Below, in pieces: positions 3,423-19,184 of a DNA stretch of 32,000 bases. This DNA is from Candidatus Nanoarchaeia archaeon (GTDB lineage: Archaea; Nanobdellota; Nanobdellia; SCGC-AAA011-G17; JACPNG01), in the NCBI GenBank assembly GCA_028714375.1, contig JAQTMK010000001.1:116729-148728 (forward strand). Reading direction: 5' to 3'. Within the stretch, counting starts at the first letter, position 1. Each line of letters opens with the position of its first letter. Both the position numbers and the translations under genes were made by a program. The notes below the pieces were generated by a model. That model saw nothing but the letters and a program-made list of their open reading frames with translations, made no database searches and had not been told where the DNA came from.

Positions 3423-4937
3423 TCACCTCCTTAATTTTTTCATCCTTCTTATATCAGCTCTTTTAGCCATTTTTGATATCTGTTTGAATTTTTTATGTTC
3501 GTAACATATAAACACAATGAACAATATAATTATTGCCAATATTATAATTAAATAAATCAACGATTCACCAAATAATCCCAAAGGAGAATTTTGCAAGTTT
3601 TCATTCAATTCATGATCATAATAATTAAATGGATATCCTGCCTCAGCAACATCTTTTCCATATTTTAATTTAACATAAACTACATAGTTTCCTTCTCCAA
3701 AATTTTCTGGCAAAGTGATTGTCTTAATGAATGTAAGTGTCTCATCAATAGCTTTTGTTTCAACAAATTTCCATTTGGATGTTCCATTATAATCAATTAT
3801 TTCATATTCAATCAAAACATCAACAATTTTGTTATTGCCCCCAAGATCTAAGGCTGTGACTTCAAGTACCAAATTGTCTCCCTTATATAACTCAGTATAT
3901 TTTTGAGGTATTAAAATTCTGATGTCAAATAAATTTCCTGGTTTATGTAAATCTTCATAAATTTTTTCTAGAGTTCCTTCTGACATATTTATTTCTTTTG
4001 TAAATAGTCCTCTGCTAGAACCACCCCCTCCGCCGCCTCCAGGACTCCCAGTCGAAGGAGTTGATGGAGTTTCAACCGGAGTCTCTTCAACAGTATACTC
4101 TGAAAAGGAAGTTACGTTAAAAACCAAAGTTCCATTTGAATATTCTTCAATTACACAATCTGAACAAACCACCCCATCTTTTAAAATTCTTGGATTGGTG
4201 AAATTTAAATCTTCTAACTGCAAGGTAGCAGGCTTATTTAATTGAGGCATCTCAGTTGTGTTTATGAAGATTTTATTATAGGTTATTTGGGTATTTGAAT
4301 CAAAATCAAAAACTCTTACTGGTTGATCTTCAAACCATTTACCATCATCACTAAGATTAATTGTTTCTTTGAATTTAACTTTTCCATATCCCGGTTTTTC
4401 CAAACATAAATCACTTATATTCTCCTGCTCGATAGTGGTTAGATTCTCAAAAACTGTAGTGTTTCCAGTATAGGTTGTTGTGTTAACAATATACCCGATA
4501 GAAGTATTAACGTTAAAAGAAACTGTTTCTGAATCGTTTACAAACCCTAAAGAATCCTGAACATAAACTCTAATTATATGATCTCCTTGTCCTGAAACAT
4601 AAATAGTTATGTTATTGTAATAGGGAATAGAATAATTTGTAGTAATATTATCAAGATTATACCATCTCATTGAAACAAAAGACATTTCATCATAAGCAGT
4701 TATGTTAAGAAGAATATCCCCAAATCTATTATATGTAGTATTCTGGGGATAATGGATTATCACATTTGGAGGAGTTGAATCAATATTTATTTTCATGGTT
4801 AAGGAATCTGCAGTAGCCTGAGCATCAAAAATACTCTCACCTATAAAACTAATTATTTTTGGGCCAATTATAAGTATGCCCAATAAAGAGAATAAAACAA
4901 TTACAAATAGAAATCTTTCCCTCTTTTTAATCTTCAT
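3423..4937 (-). CDS. Cell-surface glycoprotein-like protein with N-terminal signal/anchor and C-terminal TM anchor
   Basis: 504 aa. N-terminal hydrophobic segment is FLFVIVLFSLLGILIIG. It has many N-x-S/T sequons, Ig-like beta-rich regions and a PSTPSTGSPGGGGGGGSS linker. The C-terminal TM (LIYLIIILAIIILFIVFICY) is followed by a basic tail. The start lies 2 nt after the upstream stop. Confidence 0.75.
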   Translation of the reverse strand: MKIKKRERFLFVIVLFSLLGILIIGPKIISFIGESIFDAQATADSLTMKINIDSTPPNVIIHYPQNTTYNRFGDILLNITAYDEMSFVSMRWYNLDNITTNYSIPYYNNITIYVSGQGDHIIRVYVQDSLGFVNDSETVSFNVNTSIGYIVNTTTYTGNTTVFENLTTIEQENISDLCLEKPGYGKVKFKETINLSDDGKWFEDQPVRVFDFDSNTQITYNKIFINTTEMPQLNKPATLQLEDLNFTNPRILKDGVVCSDCVIEEYSNGTLVFNVTSFSEYTVEETPVETPSTPSTGSPGGGGGGGSSRGLFTKEINMSEGTLEKIYEDLHKPGNLFDIRILIPQKYTELYKGDNLVLEVTALDLGGNNKIVDVLIEYEIIDYNGTSKWKFVETKAIDETLTFIKTITLPENFGEGNYVVYVKLKYGKDVAEAGYPFNYYDHELNENLQNSPLGLFGESLIYLIIILAIIILFIVFICYEHKKFKQISKMAKRADIRRMKKLRR

Positions 4938-4939
4938 AT

Positions 4940-5506
4940 CTATTTTTTAGAATTCTTACCTTTTTTAACCTTTCCAAAATAGATTATTAAGATAACCAAA
5001 ATAATAAGTACAATTACTATGATTGGAATCAAACTGATTGAAGGTGTTTGTATCTCTGGAGTCTCTTCTGAAATAACTTCCTCAGGTGATTTTATTAGTA
5101 TTGGTATTTTTGTCCCTACAGAACCGCTCATCTGAACCATCTGTCCAGAATCACTTACCACCTCTGTGAATGTTAATTCTAATTCTTTAGTATCACCAAT
5201 TTTAACTCCCTCAGGTATTTTTATTTTAATATTAACTGGAAAATCTTTTATTCCAAAAGGAATAGTGTATTTATTTCCAGCATCAAGGATAGATGCAAAT
5301 TCTTTTCCTTCTGTAATTTCTGCAGATAAGGTCATATCTTTATCCCCCACCATATTCTGTAAGGTTAATTGTATTTCTTTTTCCTGTCCTGGATACATAA
5401 TTAAAGGATTTGTTTCCCAATATGGAGAATTAACGCCAAAACCATAAACTAAAGGAAATACCAAAAACAAACTTAATAATAATACCCACCTCTTTTTGTT
5501 TAACAT
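4940..5506 (-). CDS. Secreted, C-terminally membrane-anchored protein
   Basis: 188 aa. Signal peptide is WVLLLSLFLVFPLVYG. C-terminal TM (LIPIIVIVLIILVILIIYF) is followed by KKGKNSKK. GAGGTG lies 4 nt upstream of the ATG. Confidence 0.75.
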   Translation of the reverse strand: MLNKKRWVLLLSLFLVFPLVYGFGVNSPYWETNPLIMYPGQEKEIQLTLQNMVGDKDMTLSAEITEGKEFASILDAGNKYTIPFGIKDFPVNIKIKIPEGVKIGDTKELELTFTEVVSDSGQMVQMSGSVGTKIPILIKSPEEVISEETPEIQTPSISLIPIIVIVLIILVILIIYFGKVKKGKNSKK

Positions 5507-5516
5507 TTTACACCTC

Positions 5517-6431
5517 TTAACTTACCCCAACAGTCCATGCACCCGTATTGGTTGTGGAATATGCCTGTGAACTAATCCCACCTGTTACTGATTCTACACA
5601 GAAATATAAATCTTCAGATCCAGATCCAGCAGTATTATTTCCAGCAGTGATAGTTGATCCACTCACTGCTGTTGCAGTTCCGTTAACCATTGGAGTTCCT
5701 TCACATGCATCTGCAGTATTAACACTAAATGTGTCAACCAATAAATAATCTGAAGGAGTTGTCTCTCCACCTAAATTAATAGCAGTTACTTTTACGTTAC
5801 CAGCAGTTATATCTTTGTTTGCAGTATTGTTTACTTTGATTGGGTTTGAACTTGATTTTTGATCAGTAGATGTAAGAGACAATGATGTCCATGCCAATGA
5901 GTTTGGTGCCATAACCATTGCAGTAGTTTCACTCAATGAAAATTGAGTTGTATCATTTGCTCCTTTTGCACCATTTATATCTGAAATATTTGCATGAACT
6001 GTATAAGTCCCTGATCCATCCCAATACCACAATTCAACTGTACATGAATAATTTGCAGTAGTTGTATCTAAATCTGAAAGCCAGTTGCAGCTTAAATTTG
6101 TTCTTAATTCTTCCGCAGGGTTATAGAAACTTGCTTCAGCACTTGCATCATTTAAATTACCTACTCCATCTGTGTCAGAAGCAGTAAATGTGAATGCAAC
6201 TGCAGTTAATCCAGATTCAGTAACAGACTGTGATGGAATTGTAACAACAGACCCAACTGTAGGAGCAGCGTTACCAACTGTGATATTTAAGGAAGTTGTT
6301 GCACTCGTTGCTCTACCAGTAATTAAATTAGGAAGATCTCTTATAAAATCTAAAACTCCAGCAGAAACAAAACTAACTGTTAACAAGAATATAATTGAAA
6401 AAATTAAAACGTTTTTGCCTCTTTTATCCAT
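5517..6431 (-). CDS. Secreted Thr/Ser/Ala/Gly-rich Ig-like surface protein
   Basis: 304 aa. N-terminal signal-like segment is VLIFSIIFLLTVSFVSAG. The composition is beta-rich and low in charge, with a GNAAPTVGSV cadherin/Ig-like module start. It is the first gene of the 6431-to-3111 minus-strand operon. Confidence 0.7.
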   Translation of the reverse strand: MDKRGKNVLIFSIIFLLTVSFVSAGVLDFIRDLPNLITGRATSATTSLNITVGNAAPTVGSVVTIPSQSVTESGLTAVAFTFTASDTDGVGNLNDASAEASFYNPAEELRTNLSCNWLSDLDTTTANYSCTVELWYWDGSGTYTVHANISDINGAKGANDTTQFSLSETTAMVMAPNSLAWTSLSLTSTDQKSSSNPIKVNNTANKDITAGNVKVTAINLGGETTPSDYLLVDTFSVNTADACEGTPMVNGTATAVSGSTITAGNNTAGSGSEDLYFCVESVTGGISSQAYSTTNTGAWTVGVS

Positions 6432-8356: not shown

Positions 8357-8488
8357 TTAAAGAAGGAACCAAATAAAGATTGATGTGATAGTTATTAATA
8401 GGATGGTTCCTTCTAAAATAACTTTTCCCAATTTCCAGATATTTTTTACCCAGACATATGTGTTTTCCTGAACTCTCAACTTTAACAT
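8357..8488 (-). CDS. 43-aa C-terminally anchored membrane peptide
   Basis: ATG at 8488 is preceded by ACGGAGGTTAAA. Sequence is MLKLRVQENTYVWVKNIWKLGKVILEGTILLITITSIFIWFLL. It replaces the 125-aa TTG-started track ORF 8357..8734, which overlaps the next gene out of frame. Confidence 0.5.
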   Translation of the reverse strand: MLKLRVQENTYVWVKNIWKLGKVILEGTILLITITSIFIWFLL

Positions 8489-8534
8489 TTTAACCTCCGT
8501 TTTGTTAAGAATCCCCAAAACACCACCTGAAACC

Positions 8535-8753
8535 CTACTCCTCAGAGAATTTTTTTTCGATGACTTGTCCAACAGGGATATCGACAACCTTAGTTTCTTG
8601 CGTGTTATTTTTTGAAAGAGCCACAATAGACTTAGATTCTCTTCTTGTATAAGCTCCATTACCCAATGTTGAACTCCCCCTGAATCCGATTGGTTCATCT
8701 TCCTTTGGAAGACTTCCAGCATACAATTTAGCAAACCTCATACGAATACCCAT
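8535..8753 (-). CDS. 72-aa soluble hypothetical protein
   Basis: ATG at 8753 has GGAGG 5 nt upstream; the track ORF began at the TTG formed by the ribosome-binding site itself. Sequence is MGIRMRFAKLYAGSLPKEDEPIGFRGSSTLGNGAYTRRESKSIVALSKNNTQETKVVDIPVGQVIEKKFSEE. I recognise no family. Confidence 0.6.
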   Translation of the reverse strand: MGIRMRFAKLYAGSLPKEDEPIGFRGSSTLGNGAYTRRESKSIVALSKNNTQETKVVDIPVGQVIEKKFSEE

Positions 8754-8984
8754 GTTTTCCTCCAAAAATCAGAATTTTCCCGTCTTCCAGCTCTTCCATA
8801 GCTTTTAGAATTAACTCTAGACAATTAATTATCAAGAATTAAATTCAAATAAGCCATCCAAGGGCTTTCTAACGGTTTTTACGAAGTAATTTAGATAGAA
8901 CACTAGTTTATAAACTTTATGTTTTTGTTATTATTCAGAAGAGACAAATATATAATATATAGAAATATATACAATAATAGTAAT

Positions 8985-9012
8985 AAAAAACCACCCCCCA
9001 GCGGTTTTTTAT
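8985..9012 (-). terminator. Weak A/U-rich hairpin plus T-tract overlapping the stop of the 122-aa gene
   Basis: Minus strand reads AAAAAACC-GCTGGGGGGT-GGTTTTTT followed by ATTACTATT. Only two G-C pairs, so the call is weak. Confidence 0.3.
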
Positions 9013-9377
9013 CTTTCGATCGGTTTTAGTCTTATATTGCCAAATTCATTGAAAATCACGTCATTAAGAGCACTCTTGAGGAGTTTGTTCATTAGAGTAT
9101 TCACATCGAACTTAGTTAAGGAACCATGGATTTTAACCTTTTCTCTGTTGCCAACTATCCTCTTTTCCTTCTCGTTCCACAAAAAGACCTCGATCTTAAT
9201 ATCCCCATTTTCATCTCCTAGTTCCTCTATAAGAAGGACTGAATTATTCTTTACCCACTCAATCTTTCTTCTTATAGATTCCTGTGCTTCTTTTTCCAAT
9301 TCTTTCCTTGAAGTTTTCAAACCAAGGACAATTTTTGAAGCCATTTTTCTTGATCCTCGAATCTTAATTTTTAACAT
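9009..9377 (-). CDS. 122-aa hypothetical protein
   Basis: The preferred start is the ATG at 9377, preceded by AAGGAGAAATGT. An alternative ATG at 9443 overlaps the upstream stop (TAATG) but has no ribosome-binding site. The protein is charged and soluble, and I recognise no family. Confidence 0.55.
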   Translation of the reverse strand: MLKIKIRGSRKMASKIVLGLKTSRKELEKEAQESIRRKIEWVKNNSVLLIEELGDENGDIKIEVFLWNEKEKRIVGNREKVKIHGSLTKFDVNTLMNKLLKSALNDVIFNEFGNIRLKPIER

Positions 9378-9442
9378 ACATTTCTCCTTTCTAAAGAAAA
9401 AAGTTAAGGGGTGCAAGGGAAGTTTTCTTACACCCCAAATCA

Positions 9443-9835
9443 TTATTTCAAACTACGGAGCAGGTTAATAAATCCTATTGATGGTTTTTTTATATCTCCA
9501 AATTCAGGCGCCCCCTTCTTATTTCTTTTTGGATAAAGAAATATCCGATCTTTATTTAATCCAAGAAAAGACACAAGCTCATATGTAGCTTGATCATTCC
9601 CTTTCACAATTATTACTCCCCTAACCTCGGTCTGAGACCATATCCACTTAAAAACCTTCGCCCTGTCCTCTTCAGCCATATTTGGTTTCCACAACTCCCT
9701 GATCTCTACAGGCATTTCTATAATGACTGGCCTAAAGTTTATAAGATGTTTTTTGAGAAAGGTTTTTAACTTGGATATTTGTTTTTTAGTTGGGCCACGA
9801 GAATAAACCCATAAAATATTTAAAGGATCTTTCAT
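9443..9835 (-). CDS. 130-aa hypothetical alpha/beta protein
   Basis: The ATG at 9835 is preceded by GAGAGGAGGTTGTTT. The track start at 9910 is a TTG with no ribosome-binding site. Sequence begins MKDPLNILWVYSRGPTKKQ and includes VIIEMP and GVIIVKGNDQATYELVSFLGL. This alternating beta/alpha pattern suggests a Rossmann- or flavodoxin-like fold, which is speculative. Confidence 0.6.
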   Translation of the reverse strand: MKDPLNILWVYSRGPTKKQISKLKTFLKKHLINFRPVIIEMPVEIRELWKPNMAEEDRAKVFKWIWSQTEVRGVIIVKGNDQATYELVSFLGLNKDRIFLYPKRNKKGAPEFGDIKKPSIGFINLLRSLK

Positions 9836-10002
9836 AAACAACCTCCTCTCAGGTTTTCCATAGGATTTAAAATTTAAAAGAGAATTATCCCTATAATCCT
9901 CTTTTACCAAAAGCTTAAAACAACTTCTCTAGCATATATATCTTATTTAAAAACTTTGCTATTTATCATAAGGTTTATATATTTTATAAAAATATTAATT
10001 CT

Positions 10003-10482
10003 ATGAAAAGAGGTCAGATATCTCAGATATTTATTTGGATTACAGCAATTATCGTAATGGGCTTGGTTTTGTATTTTGGAGCAAAAACAGCGTTTAAATT
10101 AAAAGATTCAGGAAATCAGGTAGTATTATTAAAAGAAATCCAGAATCTAAAAGACGAAGTGGAAAAATATTATTACTTAGATAAAGGTTCATCTAAAAAA
10201 ATAACTTTGGGTTTTCCTTCTGAAATAACTTATATTTGTTTCTCAAATGGAAAAGCATTGGCAAAAAACAAGGACATAGAAGAGGGAATAGAATTTTTAA
10301 TAAAAGAAGAAGCCAAAAAAACAGATGGAAATAATTTGTTTTTAATACCTTTAAGCTCATTTGAAGAAACAGCTTTTTTTATCCCCTATTTAAAGCATGA
10401 ATCAGATAATCTATTGTGCGTTCAAAACGGGAAAACAATAACAATAGAATCAAAAGGAGATCATGTTAACATTAAAATTTAA
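10003..10482 (+). CDS. Archaeal type IV pilin-like protein (class III signal peptide)
   Basis: 159 aa. The N-terminus MKRGQISQIFIWITAIIVMGLVLYFGA has a short basic start, a KRGQ processing-site-like motif and then about 20 hydrophobic residues. Confidence 0.65.
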   Translation: MKRGQISQIFIWITAIIVMGLVLYFGAKTAFKLKDSGNQVVLLKEIQNLKDEVEKYYYLDKGSSKKITLGFPSEITYICFSNGKALAKNKDIEEGIEFLIKEEAKKTDGNNLFLIPLSSFEETAFFIPYLKHESDNLLCVQNGKTITIESKGDHVNIKI

Positions 10483-11809
10483 CTTTGCCTTTAAATTTCT
10501 TCATTAATTTTTCTGGATCTCCGCCCTTAAGCATCTTGACCATTTTTTTGCTCTGTCTGTACTGTTTTAACAATTCCCTAACATCGCTTACTTTTAATCC
10601 AGAACCTTTTGCAATCCTGTCTATTCTCTCAGAAGTTAACGTTTCAGGATCTTCCAACTCTTCTTTTGTCATTGACTGCATTATGAATTTCCATTTTTTT
10701 AATTTCTCTTCCTGAACTTCAAGCATGTCTTTAGGGATATTTGCATTGCTGAATCCAGGAATCATTTCCATAACCTTGTTTAATGGACCTAATTTTTTCA
10801 TACTCTCTAACTGTTCATATAAATCCAAGAAATTAAAATCTCCTTTCAAGAATTTCTTACCCAAATCTTTTGTTTTTTCTTCATCTAATTCTACGTTTAC
10901 TTTTTCTAACAAAGCTTCCAAATCTCCCATGCCTAATAATCTTGAAACAAAACCTTTTGGATTAAAACTTTCTAAAGCATCAACCTTTTCTCCAACACCT
11001 ATGAATTTAATTTTGGCTCCAGTAGTACTGCATGCAACTAAAGCTCCTCCCCCTTTTGCAGTACCATCTAATTTGGTTATAATAACTCCAGTAACATTGA
11101 CAGATTTATGGAATTGTTCTGCCTGTGCCTGAGCAGCCTGACCAATATCAGCACTTAGAACTAAAAGTCTTTCATCAGCTTTAATATAATGATTTAATTC
11201 TTCTATTTCTTCAATCAAATCTTTGCTTAAAGCATCTCTTCCTGCAGTATCAACAATAAGTAAATCATAATCCTTGTATTCTTTTTCAAACTCTTTGTAA
11301 ATTTTTAAAGCATTTTTCTCTTTCTTATCTATAAAACATTTAACATTTATTGAATCACATATTTGTTTTAGCTGCTCTGGTGCAGCTGGTCTGTGAACAT
11401 CTAAACCAATAGCAGCAACTTTCTTTCCTCTCTTAGAATAATATTTTGCTAATTTCCCGATTGTGGTTGTTTTTCCAGAACCAAACAAACCAACCATCAT
11501 TATCTTGAATGGTTTTTTATTCTCAATAACAATTTCTTCTTTCTCTTCTCCTAAGAATTTAACAAGTTCTTCGTAAACAACTTTGATAAGGAATTCTCTT
11601 GGATTTATCTGTTTTGTAATCTCATCTACTGCTCTTTTCTTAATGTTATTTGTTAGTTCCAGAACTAGTTTGACATTTACATCAGCTCTTAACAATGCCT
11701 TCTGAATGTCTTTGACCAACTCTTCAATTAGTCTTTTATCTACAAAAGAGCTTCTTGCTATCTTCCTTAAAGTTTCCTTTAAGCTTTCTCCTAATTTCTC
11801 CAAAACCAT
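10472..11809 (-). CDS. srp54: Signal recognition particle protein SRP54
   Basis: 445 aa. It has an N domain, GTPase motifs GLFGSGKTTT, DTAGR and TKLDG, and a Met-rich M domain. No ribosome-binding site is present. A TATA-like CTTATAAATAA lies about 25-30 nt upstream of the ATG, which looks leaderless. Confidence 0.95.
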   Translation of the reverse strand: MVLEKLGESLKETLRKIARSSFVDKRLIEELVKDIQKALLRADVNVKLVLELTNNIKKRAVDEITKQINPREFLIKVVYEELVKFLGEEKEEIVIENKKPFKIMMVGLFGSGKTTTIGKLAKYYSKRGKKVAAIGLDVHRPAAPEQLKQICDSINVKCFIDKKEKNALKIYKEFEKEYKDYDLLIVDTAGRDALSKDLIEEIEELNHYIKADERLLVLSADIGQAAQAQAEQFHKSVNVTGVIITKLDGTAKGGGALVACSTTGAKIKFIGVGEKVDALESFNPKGFVSRLLGMGDLEALLEKVNVELDEEKTKDLGKKFLKGDFNFLDLYEQLESMKKLGPLNKVMEMIPGFSNANIPKDMLEVQEEKLKKWKFIMQSMTKEELEDPETLTSERIDRIAKGSGLKVSDVRELLKQYRQSKKMVKMLKGGDPEKLMKKFKGKVKF

Positions 11810-11873
11810 AATTTTAGTTATTAATGTTTATTTATAAGTGTAGTTATTATATATATGTATATATTTATAAGAA

Positions 11874-11910
11874 ATAAAAAAAGGAGGGGAGCTCCTTTAA
11901 ACTCCCCTTC
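11874..11910 (-). terminator. Intrinsic-type terminator after the 829-aa gene
   Basis: Minus strand reads GAAGGGGAG-TTTAAAGGAG-CTCCCCTCC (9-bp stem with one G.U pair) followed by TTTTTTTATTTC. It lies 25 nt after the stop at 11935. Confidence 0.6.
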
Positions 11911-11934
11911 AATTAACTTCTCGAAAGATGAAAA

Positions 11935-14424
11935 TTAGAAACTGCCACCACAACTGTCGACCGCAAAGGTTACTTTCACCTTGCTGATCCCACTTGGAAC
12001 AGTTAACGAGAATTCAGCTATCATGGTCCATCCGGCATAGATTCTCACTTTGTTGTGATTATGGTCATAAGACCACCTATAGTCCCTATGCTGTGATGGA
12101 TTAAGATCTCCCGCGTTGAACTGTCCCGATGCGATTAATGGGGTTCCTCCACCCTCTCCTTCTACTTTCCATTTTATAGTGATATCCTGAAAAGCACAAG
12201 AGTCTGAGAGGTTCCATAAACTCCAGTCAAAGTAATCATCGCAATGTCCTGGACGGTTATTCTTTACAAGAACGCTACTCCCATCGCTATGGAAGAAAAC
12301 CGACTCGCAGAGTTTGCAAATTTCCCCGGTTTGAGTACTAACTGTTGTTCTTACATGTTCGCTGGAACAGCTATTTTCCGCGATCATATCGAACGTGGCT
12401 CCCTCAATATTATCGATTATAAATTCCATAACTCCACTGAGCGCAGTCGAAACAATCGTTCCATCTTTGTAAATAGTAACCTTGTCTGCATTTGTTGGTG
12501 TTGTCCAAATTACTGTTACTTTTTCCCCTGGTTCGACCATCTGCGGGTTGACTGTAAAGTTCTCTGGTACCATTATAACTTTGTTGCATACATTCACAGT
12601 TACACTGCTATAGGCAGCAGAACATTTGTTTGCAGCCTCCAAAGTATATGTTGTCGTTGATAAGACTGTTACGGTTTTTGTTCCTGTTGCGGATACTGGT
12701 TCTCCATTCAGGAGAATTACATCCGCATTTTTCACTGACCAACTCAATGTGACGACATCGCCAGGATTTGCATAGTCGGCAGAAGAAACAAAGCTTTCTA
12801 TCATTACATTGCTACATTCTTCTTCAACAGTGACCCCCTTAGTGCTACTGACTTCTGAAGGGCATTCATTAGAAGCAACCAACGTGAATTCAGTTGCTTC
12901 ATTGATGATTATCTTTTTAGAGCCAGAACCATCAATGACTTCCCCATTAAGAGTCACAGTCGATGCATCTTGAGTCGCCCAAGCGATGGTTACTTCTTCT
13001 CCTTTCTTTACGATGTTCGGAGAAACTTCGAAGAACAAAATCTGCGCTTGATGGCAGATTTGATTTGAACACACTTTTACAGTATGATTCTGATTCATCA
13101 CTATTGATCCGTTAGGGTCGACAGTAACTCCGTCCAGCGTGACGATCAATCCTTCGAAATCTTTTTGATTCTTAAGGAAGTATTTATAATCCACTACCTC
13201 CCCTTCTTTCCAGAAGGTAGTTCCTGGACGAGGATTACCATTGATCCCATCGCACCAGATTATTTTTAACCAGAAGCTTTTTTCGCAAGGTACTACTTCT
13301 AGACAGAAACAGCGCTGTATCGTATGCCCTGATGCATCAGTAACTGTACCAACAATACAGTATTTACCTATATTCATATAGGTGTGTTTTGCAGAAGCCA
13401 AATTGACAACAGTTCCATCTCCGAAATCAATTACATAAGTAAGTGGCAAAACTCCGCCATCGGCGAGTAATGTAACATCTACAGTATCCCCAGGACAAAG
13501 TGTCATGTATTCTGTGCCTCCGGCAAAGCCCGCAGTACTGCCGTGTTTTGTGACTGAAAGAGTTGCAGTTAAGGCTTCAGCTATCTTCTCAACTATTTTC
13601 TTGATTTTTACTTTTTCAATCACCAGAGGATACGCTGGTCTTATAATCTTACGATGAGTAAGGTTGTTAAATGAATCTCCGGCTTCAGCCCCGAGAAGTA
13701 CACTGACATTAACGCCCAATGCTTCGTAATTACCCCAACGGGAGAAACGACCCTCACCGCCAACTTTGGCTTTCTGCCAATCTGCTCCGATTGAGAGACA
13801 GTCAAAAACCTGCAATTCCGCTCCAAAAGAAAAACGATATATCTCTTTTTCAGCGTAAGTTCCTTCTGCTTTTAACCTGATGTTATTAAATGGTATCCAA
13901 ATCATTTCGCCTCCAAAGAAATTCATCGCCTCTGACCACGTTTGCGTAATAGTTTGTGTGTAATAATACCCCTCTTCATTCGTATAGAAGAATGGATTTG
14001 TAGATCTTTCTGAAATCAAAAAGGGATCACTAACAACAAATGCGTAGTAGCCAGTAATAGATAACTTTGGAAGTCGGAGCCTTATGGCTGGTCTGAGTTG
14101 GCTATGCATACGTTCATCTTGGTACAATAAGTCCGCAAAGAGATATGCACCAAGATTCTCTCCGTCCAATCCAATGCCGATGCTTGCACCATACTCTTTC
14201 ATAAAAGAGCTGGTGTTCATCATCAAGCCGCCTTGGAAGAATAATGCCCCAAGGTTATCGGCGAAGATGAATTGGCCATTTGCCGTCCAATCCTTGTCAA
14301 TCATTCTTCCATCCAAATAAAAGATGACATCTGCAGGATCATCTTTATCTGAGGAATAAGCCGACGGAAGAAACACAAACATAAGGGATAATACTCCCAA
14401 TGAGAGAATCAGCCTTTTTTTCAT
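11935..14424 (-). CDS. 829-aa secreted protein: signal peptide, beta-barrel-like N-domain, PKD domain, three Ig-like repeats, Cys-rich C-terminal domain (inverse-autotransporter-like order)
   Basis: Signal peptide is MKKRLILSLGVLSLMFVFLPSAYS. Residues about 30-255 consist of short amphipathic aromatic-rich strands (SITGYYAFVVS, YRFSFGAELQVF, LSIGADWQKAK, ALGVNVSVLLGAE). The PKD signature is TYVIDFGDGTVVNLASAKHTYMNIGKYCIVGTVTDASGH. Repeats lie at aa 461-697. AGGAGA lies 5 nt upstream of the ATG. Confidence 0.8.
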   Translation of the reverse strand: MKKRLILSLGVLSLMFVFLPSAYSSDKDDPADVIFYLDGRMIDKDWTANGQFIFADNLGALFFQGGLMMNTSSFMKEYGASIGIGLDGENLGAYLFADLLYQDERMHSQLRPAIRLRLPKLSITGYYAFVVSDPFLISERSTNPFFYTNEEGYYYTQTITQTWSEAMNFFGGEMIWIPFNNIRLKAEGTYAEKEIYRFSFGAELQVFDCLSIGADWQKAKVGGEGRFSRWGNYEALGVNVSVLLGAEAGDSFNNLTHRKIIRPAYPLVIEKVKIKKIVEKIAEALTATLSVTKHGSTAGFAGGTEYMTLCPGDTVDVTLLADGGVLPLTYVIDFGDGTVVNLASAKHTYMNIGKYCIVGTVTDASGHTIQRCFCLEVVPCEKSFWLKIIWCDGINGNPRPGTTFWKEGEVVDYKYFLKNQKDFEGLIVTLDGVTVDPNGSIVMNQNHTVKVCSNQICHQAQILFFEVSPNIVKKGEEVTIAWATQDASTVTLNGEVIDGSGSKKIIINEATEFTLVASNECPSEVSSTKGVTVEEECSNVMIESFVSSADYANPGDVVTLSWSVKNADVILLNGEPVSATGTKTVTVLSTTTYTLEAANKCSAAYSSVTVNVCNKVIMVPENFTVNPQMVEPGEKVTVIWTTPTNADKVTIYKDGTIVSTALSGVMEFIIDNIEGATFDMIAENSCSSEHVRTTVSTQTGEICKLCESVFFHSDGSSVLVKNNRPGHCDDYFDWSLWNLSDSCAFQDITIKWKVEGEGGGTPLIASGQFNAGDLNPSQHRDYRWSYDHNHNKVRIYAGWTMIAEFSLTVPSGISKVKVTFAVDSCGGSF
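12334..13044 (-). repeat. Three tandem ~75-80-aa Ig-like repeats (protein level) in the 829-aa protein
   Basis: The shared pattern is F.V.P..V..GE.VT..W....A..V.L.G......G......... followed by a Cys-containing strand. Unit 1 contains EVSPNIVKKGEEVTIAWATQDASTVTLNGE. Unit 2 contains SSADYANPGDVVTLSWSVKNADVILLNGE. Unit 3 contains TVNPQMVEPGEKVTVIWTTPTNADKVTIYKDG. Confidence 0.6.
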
Positions 14425-14710
14425 GGCATCTCCTTTTTGTTTTAATTTAATTAGGTACCCCCAAATTTCTAAGGATAGTCATTTCCTCCTTTCAAAATTT
14501 TCTGTTCTTTCGGTTTTTCCTTTGGTTTTTATTTTTTAAACCGAAATCTAACTATTATTAGAAATTACCTATTGGGTTTTACTCGGAGTTTGAGGTATTT
14601 GATTTATTTATAAGCTTTGTGATTACTAGATTATGACAATTTTGATAATACCAAACCTATATCTTAATAAATTTAATAGTTAGTATATTATTATATATAC
14701 TAAATAAAAA

Positions 14711-14738
14711 TTAAAAAAGCCCCTTCTTTCGAAGAGGC
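14711..14738 (-). terminator. Textbook intrinsic-type terminator after the OMP-like gene
   Basis: Minus strand reads GCCTCTTC-GAAA-GAAGGGGC (8-bp stem with one G.U pair and a GAAA tetraloop) followed by TTTTTTAATTTTTATTT. It lies 20 nt after the stop at 14758. Confidence 0.65.
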
Positions 14739-14757
14739 TAAAGTGAATGCAAGAAGT

Positions 14758-15345
14758 TCAGAAGCGGAATTCGATGAAAATTGTCGTTTCAATCCCCCCT
14801 GCATTGATTTTTTCTGTATCTATAGCAGATGGAATCTTCACAAATCTGTATGTTCCATCGACTCCGATAATGAACCAATAAGCAATTGGAATATTAACTC
14901 CTGCACCAACTGAGAATCCGACTTGGGTTTTTTCAAAGACATCTTTGTCTTCAAATTCGCCCGGGAAGAATTCTTTAAAATTTACGACCGATAGGGCAAC
15001 TGATGCCCATAATTCCGGGATCCACCGTCTGGATAGATAGGCACGTATGCCAACATCTCCGTAGATTATCTCAAGTTTAAGTGGAATTTCTCCGAAAGAA
15101 GTTTTTCCATTTTCGCTGTAGAAATCTACAGAAACAAAGGCTTCGAGTTGATCAGTGAGAAATCTTCCGCCCTCGACACCCCATATTTGGGTTTTATCTG
15201 TATAGAGTTCTTTTGTTAAAGAATCTCCAATCCAGTAATATCCAAGATGTCCATCAATCGTAAATTTTGGAAGCGGGTCTTCTGCTGCAAAAAGCGATAA
15301 GGGTGCAACAAGCACCAGAACCATAATCAATATTTTCTTAATCAT
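14758..15345 (-). CDS. Small outer-membrane-protein-like beta-barrel protein (OmpA/OmpW-size, OMP_b-brl-like)
   Basis: 195 aa. Signal peptide is MIKKILIMVLVLVAPLSLFA. Alternating hydrophobic/polar strands are rich in Gly and aromatics (GFSVGAGVNIPI, IIGVDGTYRFV). The C-terminus TTIFIEFRF has the terminal Phe and alternating hydrophobics of the bacterial OMP beta-signal. Its ATG overlaps the upstream stop (ATGA). Confidence 0.7.
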   Translation of the reverse strand: MIKKILIMVLVLVAPLSLFAAEDPLPKFTIDGHLGYYWIGDSLTKELYTDKTQIWGVEGGRFLTDQLEAFVSVDFYSENGKTSFGEIPLKLEIIYGDVGIRAYLSRRWIPELWASVALSVVNFKEFFPGEFEDKDVFEKTQVGFSVGAGVNIPIAYWFIIGVDGTYRFVKIPSAIDTEKINAGGIETTIFIEFRF

Positions 15346-17054
15346 TTTTTGTCCTCCTCTCCTCTTATGACTTTAAATGTATAATCGCCTGGACCTGGCT
15401 CTGCATTAATTTCCCCAATTGGGCCGATATATGAACCTCCTCTGGCGATGATTTGAACTCCGTAGATATATTCCACACCAGGGGGAAGCCCATGACCGTA
15501 GATATCTTCTCCAATATCCCGTCTGACAATTTCAAGATACACTTTGCTTTCTCCTGTCAGATTATTGGTTATCTCAATAAGCCTCAGATTTAGGTCCTTC
15601 GGATTAACTTCGAAAATAGGGGTTGTGCTGAATGATGTATCTTTAGTTCTCCTGTAGACTTTCATCAATTCAATCCATGGTTCGACCGGATAACAGACGT
15701 ATAACCTTCCTACAAAGAATGGTTCTCTTGAAGATCTCGAGTCATTAAATATGTCGCCCTTACAAGGACATCCACCCTTGCAGTCTCTTGAAACAACTGT
15801 AAAGATTTTTTCCTTAAGCAGATTTCCGTTTGAAGTTACCCTTACAAGTATATTTTCAGTTGTCGGGTAAGCGTGTGTGTGGCTTATGTTAAGATCTTTA
15901 GATGTAAATCCACAGGAACACATCCACTCAGCAGAGATTGGAAGATTATTTGGATTGCTGACTACCCGCACTATACCATTGAAGGTATGAGGCAGACATT
16001 CATTCAGAGGAGTAAGCGATACCTCAACTATCGGAGAATCATCACATCTTACAACAACTACTTTGGCAGATGCAGTACCAGTAATTCCTGTAGCGTTTCT
16101 TGCTTCCAATTTGATGTTATATACACCTTCAGCATGATATATGTGAGTAATCGCGTCTGAGTTCGAAAGAATGCCATCGTCACCACTCCATTGCTGCCAT
16201 ACCACCGGTCCACCGCTTACAATTGTGAATCTGAATAAAACTGATTCACCGACGCATTTCTTTTCAGGAGTAATAATAATTTTTAGCACAGGACCCGGAC
16301 AATTTTCAACTACGCTGGTTTTTGTTAAGGTGGATGTACTTCCATTTTTATCCATCGCAATTAACGTTACTGATATTGGTCCAACAGAAGTTGGAGTATG
16401 TGGGCAGGTTATACTTTTGCTTCCAACCTTGTATCCATCACTCCATTCAAATGTGTATGGAGTGATAGGATGGGGCCCGCTCGCAAAATTGGTTCCAGTA
16501 GCGTCAGCAGTGAATTCTTGCCCAAGACAGCCTTTATCTGGAGTGAGACCTAATTTTGCTTCTGGCGGACAAGTAACTACCTTTCCATATTTTTTAATCT
16601 TGGTTGTCGCCTCAGTTTTATCTTTGGCTGTTAACTCAACCCAGAAGGTTCCAACTGCAAGCACAGAGTGGGTGCATGTGATTGAAGTACCAGATTGCAC
16701 AAAACCATCGCTCCATTCAAAGCGATAGGGAGTTGTCGGATGTATGCCATCTGGGAATGTTGTCCCAGATGCATCCGCCACTCTATCTCCAGGGCATCCA
16801 CTATCAGGAGTTAAACCCAAGATAGGGTTTGGAGGATGACATTTGGCAATAGGTTCTTCAATGACTTTTTTCATAGATGGTTTAATATCTTCTGTAATCT
16901 TATCTTCCTGCGATGAACCTGTCAGAATCTCCTTAGCTGAAGAATCGTCGTTTCCATCTTCACCTTTTAATAATTTTTCTATACGATTACACCCAGAGAA
17001 AAGGAACAACAATAAAATTATTGCTCCCATCAAAACAAACAATTTGTGTTTCAT
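15342..17054 (-). CDS. 570-aa lipobox protein with four tandem Cys-framed PKD-like modules and a Cys-rich C-terminal domain
   Basis: The true start is the ATG at 17054, preceded by AGGAGGTG 5 nt upstream; the track start at 17102 is GTG. The N-terminus MKHKLFVLMGAIILLLFLFSGC contains the lipobox LFSGC. PKD-like cores are PYRFEWSDGFVQSGTSITCTH and PYTFEWSDGYKVGSKSITCPH. Confidence 0.8.
   Translation of the reverse strand: MKHKLFVLMGAIILLLFLFSGCNRIEKLLKGEDGNDDSSAKEILTGSSQEDKITEDIKPSMKKVIEEPIAKCHPPNPILGLTPDSGCPGDRVADASGTTFPDGIHPTTPYRFEWSDGFVQSGTSITCTHSVLAVGTFWVELTAKDKTEATTKIKKYGKVVTCPPEAKLGLTPDKGCLGQEFTADATGTNFASGPHPITPYTFEWSDGYKVGSKSITCPHTPTSVGPISVTLIAMDKNGSTSTLTKTSVVENCPGPVLKIIITPEKKCVGESVLFRFTIVSGGPVVWQQWSGDDGILSNSDAITHIYHAEGVYNIKLEARNATGITGTASAKVVVVRCDDSPIVEVSLTPLNECLPHTFNGIVRVVSNPNNLPISAEWMCSCGFTSKDLNISHTHAYPTTENILVRVTSNGNLLKEKIFTVVSRDCKGGCPCKGDIFNDSRSSREPFFVGRLYVCYPVEPWIELMKVYRRTKDTSFSTTPIFEVNPKDLNLRLIEITNNLTGESKVYLEIVRRDIGEDIYGHGLPPGVEYIYGVQIIARGGSYIGPIGEINAEPGPGDYTFKVIRGEEDKK
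15786..16841 (-). repeat. Four tandem ~85-90-aa PKD-like modules (protein level), each opening with Cys and carrying a second Cys 15-16 residues downstream (C-x14-15-C)
   Basis: Modules span aa 72-161, 162-251, 252-336 and 337-423, counted from the ATG at 17054. The first two are clearly paralogous: CHPPNPILGLTPDSGCPG versus CPPEAKLGLTPDKGCLG. Confidence 0.6.
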
Positions 17055-17239
17055 GAAACACCTCCTAAAGTTAGAATTTTTAGGCCTTCCAAGTCTTTCC
17101 ACTTAAAACTTTTTTAAGAAGAAAGTTACAACTAAGATGACCTACTTTGATTTTTTACAATTACAAATACGAAATTCTAGACCTATTTATTATTTATAAA
17201 GATTTCCTTTTGTAACTCCTATTAATGAGTAACAATTTT

Positions 17240-18025
17240 TCACCCTTTCATACAAATCTGATAAAACTCACATTCACCAGTGCCCCACTTGCACAAAGGA
17301 CCTTCACATTTAGGATATTCTTTGACATTATCGCTTTTAGTCATTTCATGGATTTTTTTAACCTCTTTTTTGGCAAATTCAATAAGTTCATCATCCACAG
17401 TAATATACTCTTCACCAAATTTTAAAAAATTAATCCCTGCCTTAGAAGGCATTCGTCCATATTTTTCATAAAACAACAAACAATAGATAGCAAGCTGTAA
17501 CTTATACTCCTCAGTAATGTAATCCTTATTGGAAGTTTTATAATCCAGTATAATTCCCTCATCATCAAAAAGAGCATCAATATACCCTCTTACTTTATAC
17601 TTATCACTGATAAACTCAACCTCAGTCTTTGGCTTTAGTTTGTTAAAACTTGTAACCAAATCATCAGGATCTAACTTGTCAAGTAAATCATTAACCCAGT
17701 ATCCAATCATGTCACGAGTTTCTTCAAAATAAAATCCAATCTTCTCTTTAGGAGAAACAGTTTCAAAAATATCACTTTTGTTTAACAACCAGTGTTTTTT
17801 TAATAATTCTAAAGCAATCATTCTTAATTCAAAATCAAAATTTTCTTTGGAAATCTCATCTATGTTTATGTTAAAGAATTCTTCAAGAACGCTGTGAACT
17901 AAATTTCCCCTGACCAAATGTATTGATTTTTTTAAAGGTAGGTTCTTAATATATTGATAATAATATCTTCTGGGACATTGTCTGTATGTATTTATTGATG
18001 AAGCAGACTGATATTCACGGGGCAT
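17240..18025 (-). CDS. PD-(D/E)XK nuclease, Cas4/RecB-exonuclease-like with Fe-S cysteines
   Basis: 261 aa. An N-terminal Cys lies in YRQCPRRYYY. The core motifs are IDALFD...ILDYK (D...D/ExK) and QLAIYCLL (QxxxY). The C-terminal cysteine cluster is CEGPLCKWGTGECEFYQIC. Confidence 0.7.
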   Translation of the reverse strand: MPREYQSASSINTYRQCPRRYYYQYIKNLPLKKSIHLVRGNLVHSVLEEFFNINIDEISKENFDFELRMIALELLKKHWLLNKSDIFETVSPKEKIGFYFEETRDMIGYWVNDLLDKLDPDDLVTSFNKLKPKTEVEFISDKYKVRGYIDALFDDEGIILDYKTSNKDYITEEYKLQLAIYCLLFYEKYGRMPSKAGINFLKFGEEYITVDDELIEFAKKEVKKIHEMTKSDNVKEYPKCEGPLCKWGTGECEFYQICMKG

Positions 18026-18074
18026 TTAGAAAAACATAAATTAGCGATATTTAAATTTAAGTATACTGCAGTAT

Positions 18075-19184
18075 TTAGATTCCGATTTTCTTCATTAACT
18101 CATCCTTGTCAAACTCTTTTAAATCGTTATAATTCTGGCCGTTTCCGAAATAAATTATAGGTTTTCCGGTCACATATGAAACAGAAATAGCAGCTCCGCC
18201 TTTCTCATCAACGTCTAATTTGCTTAAGATAATACCGTCAATGCCAACTGCTTCATTGAATTTAACAACCTGTTCTATGCAGTCATTCCCAGTTATTGAC
18301 TCACCTATAAATATTTTCATGTCAGGTTTTGCAACTTTGATTATTTTTTTCATCTCATCCATTAAGTTAGTATTGCTGTGAAGTCTTCCTGCAGTATCAA
18401 TCAAAACAACATCAAGATTTTTGGATTCAGCATGTTTTATCCCGTCAAAACAGACAGCAGCAGGATCAGATCCATAATCATGCTTGATAACTTTAATACC
18501 TAATTTTTCTCCATGTTCTTCAAGTTGATGTATTGCTGCAGCCCTGAATGTATCTGCTGCAACTAAAACACAGCTTAATTTGTGGTCCTGTAATTTTTTA
18601 GCAACTTTTGCAATTGTAGTTGTTTTACCGCTTCCATTAACTCCAAGAAAAACAATAACATAAGGTTTTTTTGTTTTAACTTTTGAAATTAAATCAAATT
18701 TATCATTTTTGAATAAACTTTCAATGCTTGTTTTAAGACTTTCTAAGATAATCTCTTCAATCTGTCCTTTTTTCAATGGTTTTTCAACCAAATCTTTTTT
18801 CAAATCCTCTTTTATTTTTTCTATAACTTCCAAGGCAACATTGTTTTCGAGTAAAACCATCTCTAAATCATAAAATAACTCTTCAAACTTTTCCTCATCA
18901 ATTTTTTTAGTGGTTATGACTTCATGGAATTTTTTGAATAAACCTTTTTTTTCTTTAGGCTCTTCTTTGATAACAGTTTCTTCAAAGAACTCTTTTTTTT
19001 CTATTTTTTCCTCAAAACTCTTTGTTTTTTTGTGTTCTTTTACTTCTTCCTTGATTTCTATCTTTTTTTCTTTGGGTTTTTCCTCTATCTTAACTTCAAT
19101 TTTCTCTTCAGGCACTTCTTCCTCAGCTTTTTTGCTGATTTTCTCTACAACGCCCTTTATCTTGTCTTTTAAAAATTTAAACAT
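18075..19184 (-). CDS. ftsY: SRP receptor FtsY
   Basis: 369 aa. It has a K/E-rich N-terminal region and an NG domain with GVNGSGKTTT, DTAGR and SKLD motifs. Confidence 0.95.
   Translation of the reverse strand: MFKFLKDKIKGVVEKISKKAEEEVPEEKIEVKIEEKPKEKKIEIKEEVKEHKKTKSFEEKIEKKEFFEETVIKEEPKEKKGLFKKFHEVITTKKIDEEKFEELFYDLEMVLLENNVALEVIEKIKEDLKKDLVEKPLKKGQIEEIILESLKTSIESLFKNDKFDLISKVKTKKPYVIVFLGVNGSGKTTTIAKVAKKLQDHKLSCVLVAADTFRAAAIHQLEEHGEKLGIKVIKHDYGSDPAAVCFDGIKHAESKNLDVVLIDTAGRLHSNTNLMDEMKKIIKVAKPDMKIFIGESITGNDCIEQVVKFNEAVGIDGIILSKLDVDEKGGAAISVSYVTGKPIIYFGNGQNYNDLKEFDKDELMKKIGI

Follow-up and report, generated by a model that had tools for sequence, protein, structure and literature searches.

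The 32,000-nt stretch of DNA analysed here (the window: contig JAQTMK010000001.1, positions 116,729 to 148,728, Candidatus Nanoarchaeia archaeon) carries on its minus strand an intact open reading frame (ORF), 11935..14424, with an 829-amino-acid (aa) product: a signal peptide, a domain predicted to be a membrane β-barrel, a linker, a series of PKD and immunoglobulin-like (Ig-like) domains and a cysteine-rich tip. β-barrel membrane proteins and type V secretion count as characteristic of diderm bacteria and their organelles, and a reading made from the letters of the window (the sequence-only reading) had recognised in this gene the domain order of intimin and invasin, the inverse autotransporters (IATs) of type Ve secretion, within an archaeal contig. 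That the contig is archaeal was borne out by marker genes in the window (Gins51, aIF2-alpha, L44e, PAC2, an eRF1-family protein, TruD, SRP54 and FtsY) and by the GenBank source name; NCBI taxonomy places Candidatus Nanoarchaeia within Nanobdellota (DPANN).

Gene model and domain layout

The gene and its parts are as follows.

11935..14424, minus strand: whole gene, candidate inverse-autotransporter-like adhesin (ORF; identical protein on Logan contig L001)
14431..14436, minus strand: Shine-Dalgarno site AAGGAG, 7 nt before the ATG
14353..14424, minus strand: Sec signal peptide, aa 1-24, cleavage motif AYS↓S (read from sequence)
13690..14352, minus strand: predicted N-terminal β-barrel domain, aa 25-245 (AlphaFold2 model, Foldseek, strand polarity, weak profile matches)
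13567..13689, minus strand: linker, aa 246-286, with a short helix, a Y-P motif and a 17-residue polar strand (LVIEKVKIKKIVEKIAE)
13291..13566, minus strand: PKD domain, aa 287-378 (Pfam PKD_4, E=1e-9 over aa 308-369)
13060..13290, minus strand: β-rich region, aa 379-455, resembling InlB B-repeat-like modules of relatives (read from sequence)
12325..13059, minus strand: three tandem Ig-like repeats of about 80 aa each, aa 456-700 (self-alignment)
11935..12324, minus strand: Cys-rich tip, aa 701-829 plus stop, predicted 8-strand β-sandwich (alignment A3, AlphaFold2)

Translation from the ATG at 14424 yields an N-terminus that reads as a typical Sec signal peptide (MKKRLILSLGVLSLMFVFLPSAYS↓SD), and family homologues bear equivalent ones. 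Because the homologue alignments begin at about residue 27 of the 829-aa form, this long start is the correct one. In GenBank the protein is a 724-aa "PKD domain-containing protein" of a metagenome-assembled genome (MAG; 382-kb contig) of Candidatus Nanoarchaeia archaeon. This version starts at M106 and is truncated, without the signal peptide and the first five barrel strands that homologues keep. Within the 5' leader of the 829-aa gene lies a tiny upstream ORF (MTILRNLGVPN*, 14451-14486, minus strand) with a strong GGAGG site.

The domain order read earlier stood up to this comparison. The ORF and its signal peptide (aa 1-24) are backed by the Shine-Dalgarno site and the homologue alignments, the PKD domain by a Pfam match at aa 308-369, and the three tandem Ig-like repeats by self-alignment and by alignment to the repeats of two bacterial proteins, P0002 and P0005 (aa 456-700); the Cys-rich C-terminal domain ending SCGGSF spans about 130 aa and is conserved in five homologues. 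Where about 18 cysteines had been claimed, the count is 19, of which 18 lie C-terminal to the barrel.

We modelled aa 25-300 with AlphaFold2, using a 27-sequence alignment of the family (alignment A1), and obtained an all-β meander with a short helix and then a 17-residue strand behind it, at a mean predicted local distance difference test score (pLDDT) of 93.5 and a predicted template-modelling score (pTM) of 0.84. When the model was compared with the PDB by Foldseek, the first match was the transmembrane β-domain of invasin (4e1t; E=2.1e-7, template-modelling (TM) scores 0.55/0.61) and the second and third were the intimin β-domain (4e1s, 5g26), with E-values of 2e-7 to 5e-6 and TM-scores of 0.50-0.61 across the three; the invasin/intimin alignment spans the linker region too, over 279 aligned columns. 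The best 50 of the 73 PDB matches at E<=1e-3 were all outer-membrane barrels, those listed beyond invasin and intimin including OmpG, porins, NanC, KdgM, PcoB, FapF and the autotransporters EspP and EstA. Among the listed matches, the top target-normalised TM-scores belonged to the 12-stranded barrels NanC (0.72), KdgM (0.68) and PcoB (0.68).

All structural statements made here rest on prediction. The DSSP string of the model can be read as 12 strands, of which two (97-117 and 128-155 in domain numbering) make a single long hairpin that protrudes (aa 121-179); the tip of this hairpin is deleted in a short type of family member described below. The count of 12 thus draws on DSSP, on this deletion and on the best TM-scores, which are to 12-stranded barrels. 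Long loops would fall at odd positions, as in bacterial outer-membrane proteins with a periplasmic N-terminus.

Across the 27 homologues, one face is nearly free of polar residues in 12/12 strands (polar fraction 0-0.23; mean Kyte-Doolittle hydrophobicity +1.6). The opposite face is mixed and more polar (mean -0.9), with a polar fraction of 0.30-0.66 in 11/12 strands, the exception being strand 97-106 (0.10). In a barrel of about 12 strands, such polarity implies that the apolar face points outward, and the conserved polar residues of the barrel (Q and R) sit on the non-lipid face. The linker that follows contains an invariant P266 and a near-conserved Y265 family-wide (alignment A1), and in its 17-residue strand (DSSP 243-259 in domain numbering, pLDDT about 95) both faces are polar throughout the family. 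Read from the sequences, the overall pattern is what a barrel embedded in lipid would show, with water filling its lumen and a segment that is neither wall nor lipid-exposed, and the linker would lie inside that lumen.

Sequence profiles pointed weakly, and only, to outer-membrane barrels as well. Profile A1 made weak matches in the PDB to the designed 12-stranded barrel TMB12 (E=0.0025) and to OmpX (E=0.08); the Pfam family OMP_b-brl was matched by 5/27 family N-domains (best E 1.2e-4), and single members weakly matched MipA, DUF481, Phenol_MetA_deg or MtrB_PioB. The N-domain of the target itself had no sequence match in Pfam, NCBIfam or the PDB. Such a lack of significant Pfam or PDB matches would suit a soluble β-barrel or β-sandwich; since the 50 best structural matches are all outer-membrane barrels, and every strand keeps an apolar face opposite one that is 30-66% polar in 11/12 strands, we consider a soluble domain very improbable. 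The membrane β-barrel of the sequence-only reading was supported by the model and its outer-membrane matches: the matches did not point to a soluble β-sandwich or jelly roll, and the family homologues are not S-layer proteins.

The same cannot be said of membership in the IAT family, whose defining feature is the invasin_beta domain, whose reported hosts are all from diderm bacterial phyla and whose diagnosis, following Heinz et al. 2016, requires a sequence match to invasin_beta/IAT_beta (PMC4943183). PF11924 (IAT_beta) had no match in the target at E<=0.01 and none in the 27 family N-domains at E<=1, while E. coli YeeJ, which has a true IAT barrel, was matched at E=1e-113 over aa 125-400. 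An hhalign comparison of family profile A1 with that YeeJ domain (aa 125-400) gave a probability of 0.95%, so the proposed search for sequence homology to intimin/invasin barrels came out negative. On sequence, the protein is not a member of the inverse-autotransporter family: the intimin/invasin-like domain order and the barrel stand, family membership falls, and "type Ve secretion in an archaeon" narrows to a predicted type Ve-like architecture.

The PKD domain that follows the linker scores above the gathering threshold in two Pfam models (PKD_4, PF18911, 38.8 bits against a cutoff of 27; PKD, PF00801, 26.2 against 23.5), and PKD is the first domain after the linker in most of the long members scanned with Pfam; short-type members have a different small C-domain. 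The β-rich region at aa 379-455 gave no Pfam match in the target, and similar segments are present in three relatives (P0011, P0018 and P0035), with Flg_new_2 modules in clade-A relatives (see below). The Ig-like repeats are 27-30% identical to the tandem repeats of P0002 and P0005, and a Pfam scan of the target found no Big_1 or Big_2 match.

The tip (AlphaFold2 model, pLDDT 88.8) is modelled as a jelly-roll, galectin-like sandwich and not as the C-type lectin of intimin and invasin; its Foldseek matches, to galectins, CBM66 and PRY/SPRY, are weak (TM<=0.45). Alignment A3, of the target and five homologues (11938-12342, minus strand, in the target), holds as invariants a CxxC motif, an N-x-S/T sequon and a further Cys. 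The sequon is N738 in the target, invariant in all six sequences, and could be a conserved glycosylation site or a structural motif.

P0002 (1027 aa, JGI) and P0005 (1043 aa, ENA) combine an N-terminal OmpA peptidoglycan-binding domain, a coiled coil and a β-rich region of about 230 aa with the Ig-like repeats they share with the target. As homologues of the barrel they were rejected, the N-domain profile giving no match and hhalign a probability of 0.5%, and they may represent a separate barrel-plus-Ig design.

A barrel family across archaea, bacteria and a phage-like contig

A phmmer search with aa 25-300 against 1.84 billion cluster representatives returned 41 representatives at E<=1e-3 and 22 at E<=1e-10, with a best non-self E-value of 4e-47, which marks the N-domain as a real conserved domain and not a chance pattern. 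The family domain is about 260 aa long; some members have it directly behind the signal peptide, others behind an additional N-terminal region of 170-300 aa. It has no Pfam or NCBIfam model, and the family is previously uncurated and newly defined here. Searching with the full protein found only the protein itself and PKD/Ig-repeat matches, and a search with profile A1 found nothing; scans with alignment A2 found no relative in GTDB genomes, and neither A2 nor the phage-like member P0010 found the family in IMG/VR. The literature we searched held no report of inverse autotransporters in archaea or in bacteria of the Candidate Phyla Radiation (CPR), nor of outer-membrane barrels in Nanoarchaeia or CPR.

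Family members could be placed in three archaeal contigs, two syntenic CPR loci, Acidobacteriota and Aminicenantes, and one phage-like contig. Besides the target, the archaeal members are P0011 (MDD5178050.1, locus L002), flanked by the TBP and IleRS genes and close to RFC genes in another Nanoarchaeia MAG, and P0035 (locus L006), on a contig with EF-1alpha and S6e; the two contigs measure 62 kb and 520 kb, respectively. The archaeal copies are intact, highly divergent (20-31% identity) and set in different genomic contexts on the three contigs.

The CPR member P0018 (locus L003) lies on a 134-kb contig with sortase, YkuD, Ddl and type IV pilin genes, whose MreB is 93% and 88% identical to those of Patescibacteria MAGs. 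P0028/P0060 (locus L007) occupies the same slot, in the order FtsJ, RsmD, family gene, PAP2, FAD oxidase, PEGA, MreB, GT4. The slot spans 10001-11632 in L003 and 10001-12409 in L007, and with its two occupants only about 25% identical it looks like a replacement hot spot.

Two members come from diderm phyla, P0033 from Acidobacteriota and P0029 from Aminicenantes. In P0033, bacterial SH3b domains and a coiled coil precede the barrel; the SH3b takes the position that LysM has in intimin, an argument for an intimin-like topology in hosts that have an outer membrane. The full target architecture, Cys-rich tip included, recurs in a 796-aa protein (P0010/P0050) on a phage-like contig (L089 1-9279; ENA ERZ27247916 k141_939166), among genes for a phage-type dATP/dGTP pyrophosphohydrolase, a lytic transglycosylase/tail-like protein, a dUTPase with an intein/homing endonuclease and a Mom-like protein.

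In a neighbour-joining tree, which has long branches and no support values and serves for description only, the family falls into two clades: clade A holds Acidobacteriota-type proteins with InlB-B-repeat passengers, and clade B holds the target, P0011, P0009, the phage-like P0010, the CPR members, the third archaeal member and the short type (about 380 aa). Short-type members (L091 152-4415) stand among tandem small lipoprotein genes (172 and 179 aa), and two of them (P0013/P0017) have a C-domain with homology to the 172-aa lipoprotein (38% identity over 50 aa). The same domain may thus be displayed either on a lipid anchor or on a barrel, a hint, from sequence comparison, that the barrel is a portable anchor. 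GC content at third codon positions (GC3) is higher in family genes than in their neighbours in L002 (0.42 vs about 0.34) and L007 (0.63 vs about 0.35), which fits repeated transfer.

The island around the gene and its regulatory signals

A GC-richer island (about 11.9-17.1 kb) of three genes on one strand, the target being the last, lies between SRP54 and a Cas4-like nuclease plus FtsY. GC content is 0.40-0.42 in the island vs about 0.31 in the flanks, with a sharp composition shift at both ends, and GC3 is 0.32-0.39 vs about 0.17-0.31 for well-supported flanking genes. The features of the island outside the target gene are as follows.

11885..11908, minus strand: terminator-like GC hairpin and T-run, just past the target stop
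14605..14613, minus strand: TATA-box-like motif TTATAAATA, about 185 nt upstream of the target ATG
14718-14739, minus strand: terminator-like hairpin and T-run, end of the 570-aa/195-aa unit
14758..15345, minus strand: 195-aa protein with signal peptide and small predicted β-barrel of the outer-membrane-protein (OMP) type, ending ...TIFIEFRF (Pfam)
15342..17054, minus strand: 570-aa protein with lipobox-like signal (LFSGC; MKHKLFVLMGAIILLLFLFSGC) and PKD repeats
17191..17199, minus strand: TTATAAATA motif upstream of the 570-aa/195-aa transcription unit

The 570-aa and 195-aa genes form an operon, as the stop of the former overlaps the start of the latter; from an upstream GTG, the ORF of the 570-aa gene reaches 17102 (586 aa). 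The 195-aa protein matched Pfam OMP_b-brl at E=2.6e-6, its 28.2 bits lying just under the cutoff of 28.7, and its C-terminus resembles the β-signal of bacterial outer-membrane proteins. It found only itself in a database of about 5.8 billion sequences clustered at 90% identity, and is, as read from sequence, probably a second OMP-type barrel in the archaeal contig.

Expression signals within the island are of two kinds. The native first genes (SRP54, FtsY, TruD and others) lack both a leader and a Shine-Dalgarno site, their TATA box standing 25-32 nt ahead of the ATG, whereas all three island genes have strong Shine-Dalgarno sites and long leaders. Terminator-like sites number 9 in the region vs 3.7 expected, and both island transcription units end in one; the Shine-Dalgarno sites and terminator-like hairpins of the island are bacterial traits. 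The motif TTATAAATA occurs 6 times in the window vs 1.9 expected, 5 of these in minus-strand intergenic regions upstream of minus-strand genes (11829, 11862, 14605, 17191 and 19204, all on the minus strand), so that it precedes SRP54 and FtsY as well as both island units. It is probably the local TATA-box motif, and a scan for sigma-70 promoters showed no enrichment (15 found vs 15.3 expected). These signals suggest an island that is foreign yet wired to host promoters, and acquired horizontally, most likely from bacteria and possibly via phage or other mobile DNA. No att-like direct repeats flank it, and the three island proteins had no match in the PHROGs library.

A bacterial fragment misjoined into an archaeal contig during assembly or binning would also produce a sharp composition shift at both ends. 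A Logan contig (run SRR22315509), which may share its reads with the MAG, matches positions 11762-18561 at 100% identity and crosses both junctions, from the SRP54 side to the FtsY side, and homologues are embedded in the two other archaeal contigs (62 kb and 520 kb); chimerism is unlikely on these grounds, and with host-type promoter motifs inside the island's own intergenic regions we regard it as hardly credible.

More thought is due to the view that the island is inert, that is, recently arrived bacterial DNA whose barrel is not assembled without an outer membrane and whose genes are heading to decay. The GC3 above that of the host, the bacterial-style Shine-Dalgarno starts and intrinsic-terminator hairpins next to leaderless native genes, the bacterial β-signal-like end of the 195-aa protein, and window and related loci in which no outer-membrane machinery was seen are all compatible with it. 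It sits poorly with three island ORFs that are all intact, with host-type TTATAAATA motifs upstream of both units, with intact copies at 20-31% identity in different contexts on three archaeal contigs, and with a syntenic slot conserved in two CPR genomes that holds intact copies, and we judge it quite unlikely.

Several further observations concern the surroundings of the island. Two SRP GTPases, SRP54 (10472-11809, minus strand) and FtsY (18075-19184, minus strand), flank this island of secreted proteins. The nuclease at its edge is a Cas4-like PD-(D/E)XK enzyme (17240-18025), and a PDDEXK gene is also found near the archaeal homologue in L006. At 8357-9910 (minus strand) lie three small ORFs (125, 144 and 155 aa; GC3 0.33-0.42) with no convincing family match, which may be another foreign patch or not genes at all. 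At 3423-6431 (minus strand) is a cluster of genes for three archaeal surface proteins that look native (504, 188 and 304 aa), each with a signal peptide; the 504- and 304-aa proteins have many N-x-S/T sequons, the 504- and 188-aa proteins have C-terminal transmembrane anchors, and their anchoring differs in style from that of the island proteins.

Topology, membrane and comparison with known systems

The reading that we favour, with a probability of roughly 0.62, is that the gene encodes a secreted cell-surface adhesin of type Ve architecture, built on a new barrel family and carried by a foreign three-gene island of a DPANN archaeon that now stands behind host-type TATA motifs. The product would be exported by Sec and its barrel would then embed in a lipid membrane, with the polar linker occupying the lumen. 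The PKD domain, the B-repeat-like module and the three Ig-like repeats would form a stalk with the disulfide-rich, lectin-like tip at its end, and stalk and tip would be displayed for cell-cell or cell-surface attachment. To our knowledge, neither an outer membrane nor a β-barrel assembly machinery (BAM) is known for this archaeon. We weakly favour BAM-independent insertion, into an outer envelope or into the membrane of a partner cell during episymbiotic contact.

Several points weigh against this reading. The placement of the linker in the lumen, the number of 12 strands and the closure of the barrel are deduced from the DSSP string, the indel pattern and the TM-scores; the structural matches of the tip are weak; expression of the target gene from an archaeal-type promoter, although probable, is argued from a motif. 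With no sequence link to IAT_beta, the resemblance to intimin and invasin may be convergent. No Omp85/BamA or other outer-membrane biogenesis gene turned up in the window or across the related archaeal and CPR loci (about 75 kb), and a single membrane is the accepted view for DPANN Nanoarchaeia and for the CPR described so far (PMC8871954).

OmpA, too, has its barrel at the N-terminus and further domains behind it, and the barrel of the target could be an anchor only, with the C-terminal domains remaining on the side of the chain termini without ever passing through the pore; the barrel might, for instance, insert from outside into the membrane of a partner or of the cell itself, leaving the stalk outside. 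Such a topology would suit an archaeon for which scans of the window made no BAM or periplasm evident and a barrel with no sequence homology to IAT_beta. The short type, whose barrel carries a domain that neighbouring genes present as lipoproteins, also suggests an interchangeable anchor. It accounts less well for best structural matches that are invasin and intimin β-domains with the linker region included (279 aligned columns), for a conserved linker (invariant P, near-conserved Y) whose 17-residue strand, polar on both faces, fits a water-filled lumen, and for conserved Q and R on the non-lipid face. We consider an OmpA-like topology unlikely.

The membrane itself could be of an ordinary kind if these DPANN lineages, and CPR with them, had a hidden outer membrane or outer lipid layer, the protein then being a common outer-membrane adhesin. 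Two OMP-type barrels side by side, the 195-aa one with a canonical C-terminal Phe, would fit, as would the diderm archaea reported in Ignicoccus, ARMAN and Altiarchaeum (PMC8871954) and the possible porin-like relative mentioned for Altiarchaeales (PMC12228718). The window and the related loci (about 75 kb), however, contain no Omp85/BamA, Lpt, Lol or Skp/SurA-type genes, the native surface proteins in the window use C-terminal transmembrane anchors, and the sortase and YkuD of L003 are typical of monoderms, all of which makes a hidden outer membrane rather improbable.

Going beyond the adhesin reading, we offer as a speculation, and one that we think doubtful, that DPANN and CPR episymbionts without an outer membrane share, via phage or other mobile DNA, type V-like adhesins that are assembled without BAM and tether cells to one another. 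On that proposal the recipient membrane may belong to the partner or host cell, or the barrel may go into an outer layer of the symbiont that has so far gone unrecognised. If true, it would be the first β-barrel autotransporter-like surface display outside diderm bacteria and the first in Archaea.

What matters already is that a confidently modelled barrel, structurally closest to intimin and invasin and fused to an adhesin stalk, is intact in three DPANN contigs. This raises the questions of how, and into which membrane, such a barrel inserts without BAM, of whether DPANN and CPR cells attach to their hosts by this adhesin, and of whether phages carry envelope modules across the boundary between bacteria and archaea. 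What is new is the combination of a type Ve-like architecture with a new barrel family, found in organisms not expected to have such proteins.

Set beside known systems, the barrel comes closest in target-normalised TM-score (0.66-0.72) to NanC, KdgM and PcoB, which fits a 12-stranded barrel of similar size; these are, however, stand-alone channels without linker or passenger and have no sequence similarity to the target. OmpA-type proteins likewise put the barrel first and soluble domains after it, but OmpA has 8 strands and a periplasmic peptidoglycan-binding domain, whereas the target has about 12 predicted strands, a conserved polar linker and Cys-rich adhesin-type domains, and no Pfam match to the OmpA domain PF00691 was found in it. 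Classical autotransporters (type Va) differ in that the barrel of the target is N-terminal and its C-terminus is a predicted β-sandwich. Phage-encoded outer-membrane barrels in BFVD, along with autotransporter β-domains of uncultured Caudovirales, also match the model, but weakly (TM 0.3-0.5).

With the inverse autotransporters the protein shares a signal peptide, an N-terminal barrel that forms with its linker a unit of about 270 aa (IAT_beta has 279 positions), Ig-like domains and a distinct tip, as well as the best structural matches of its N-domain; relatives from diderm phyla further bear a putative periplasmic SH3b before the barrel, where intimin has LysM. It differs in having no detectable sequence homology in the barrel, in a passenger of PKD and unclassified Ig-like repeats in place of Big_1, in a predicted jelly-roll sandwich at the tip in place of a C-type lectin, and in a family whose hosts include DPANN archaea and CPR bacteria. 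The two thus share an architecture and the closest fold but belong to separate families, which may be convergent or very distantly related.

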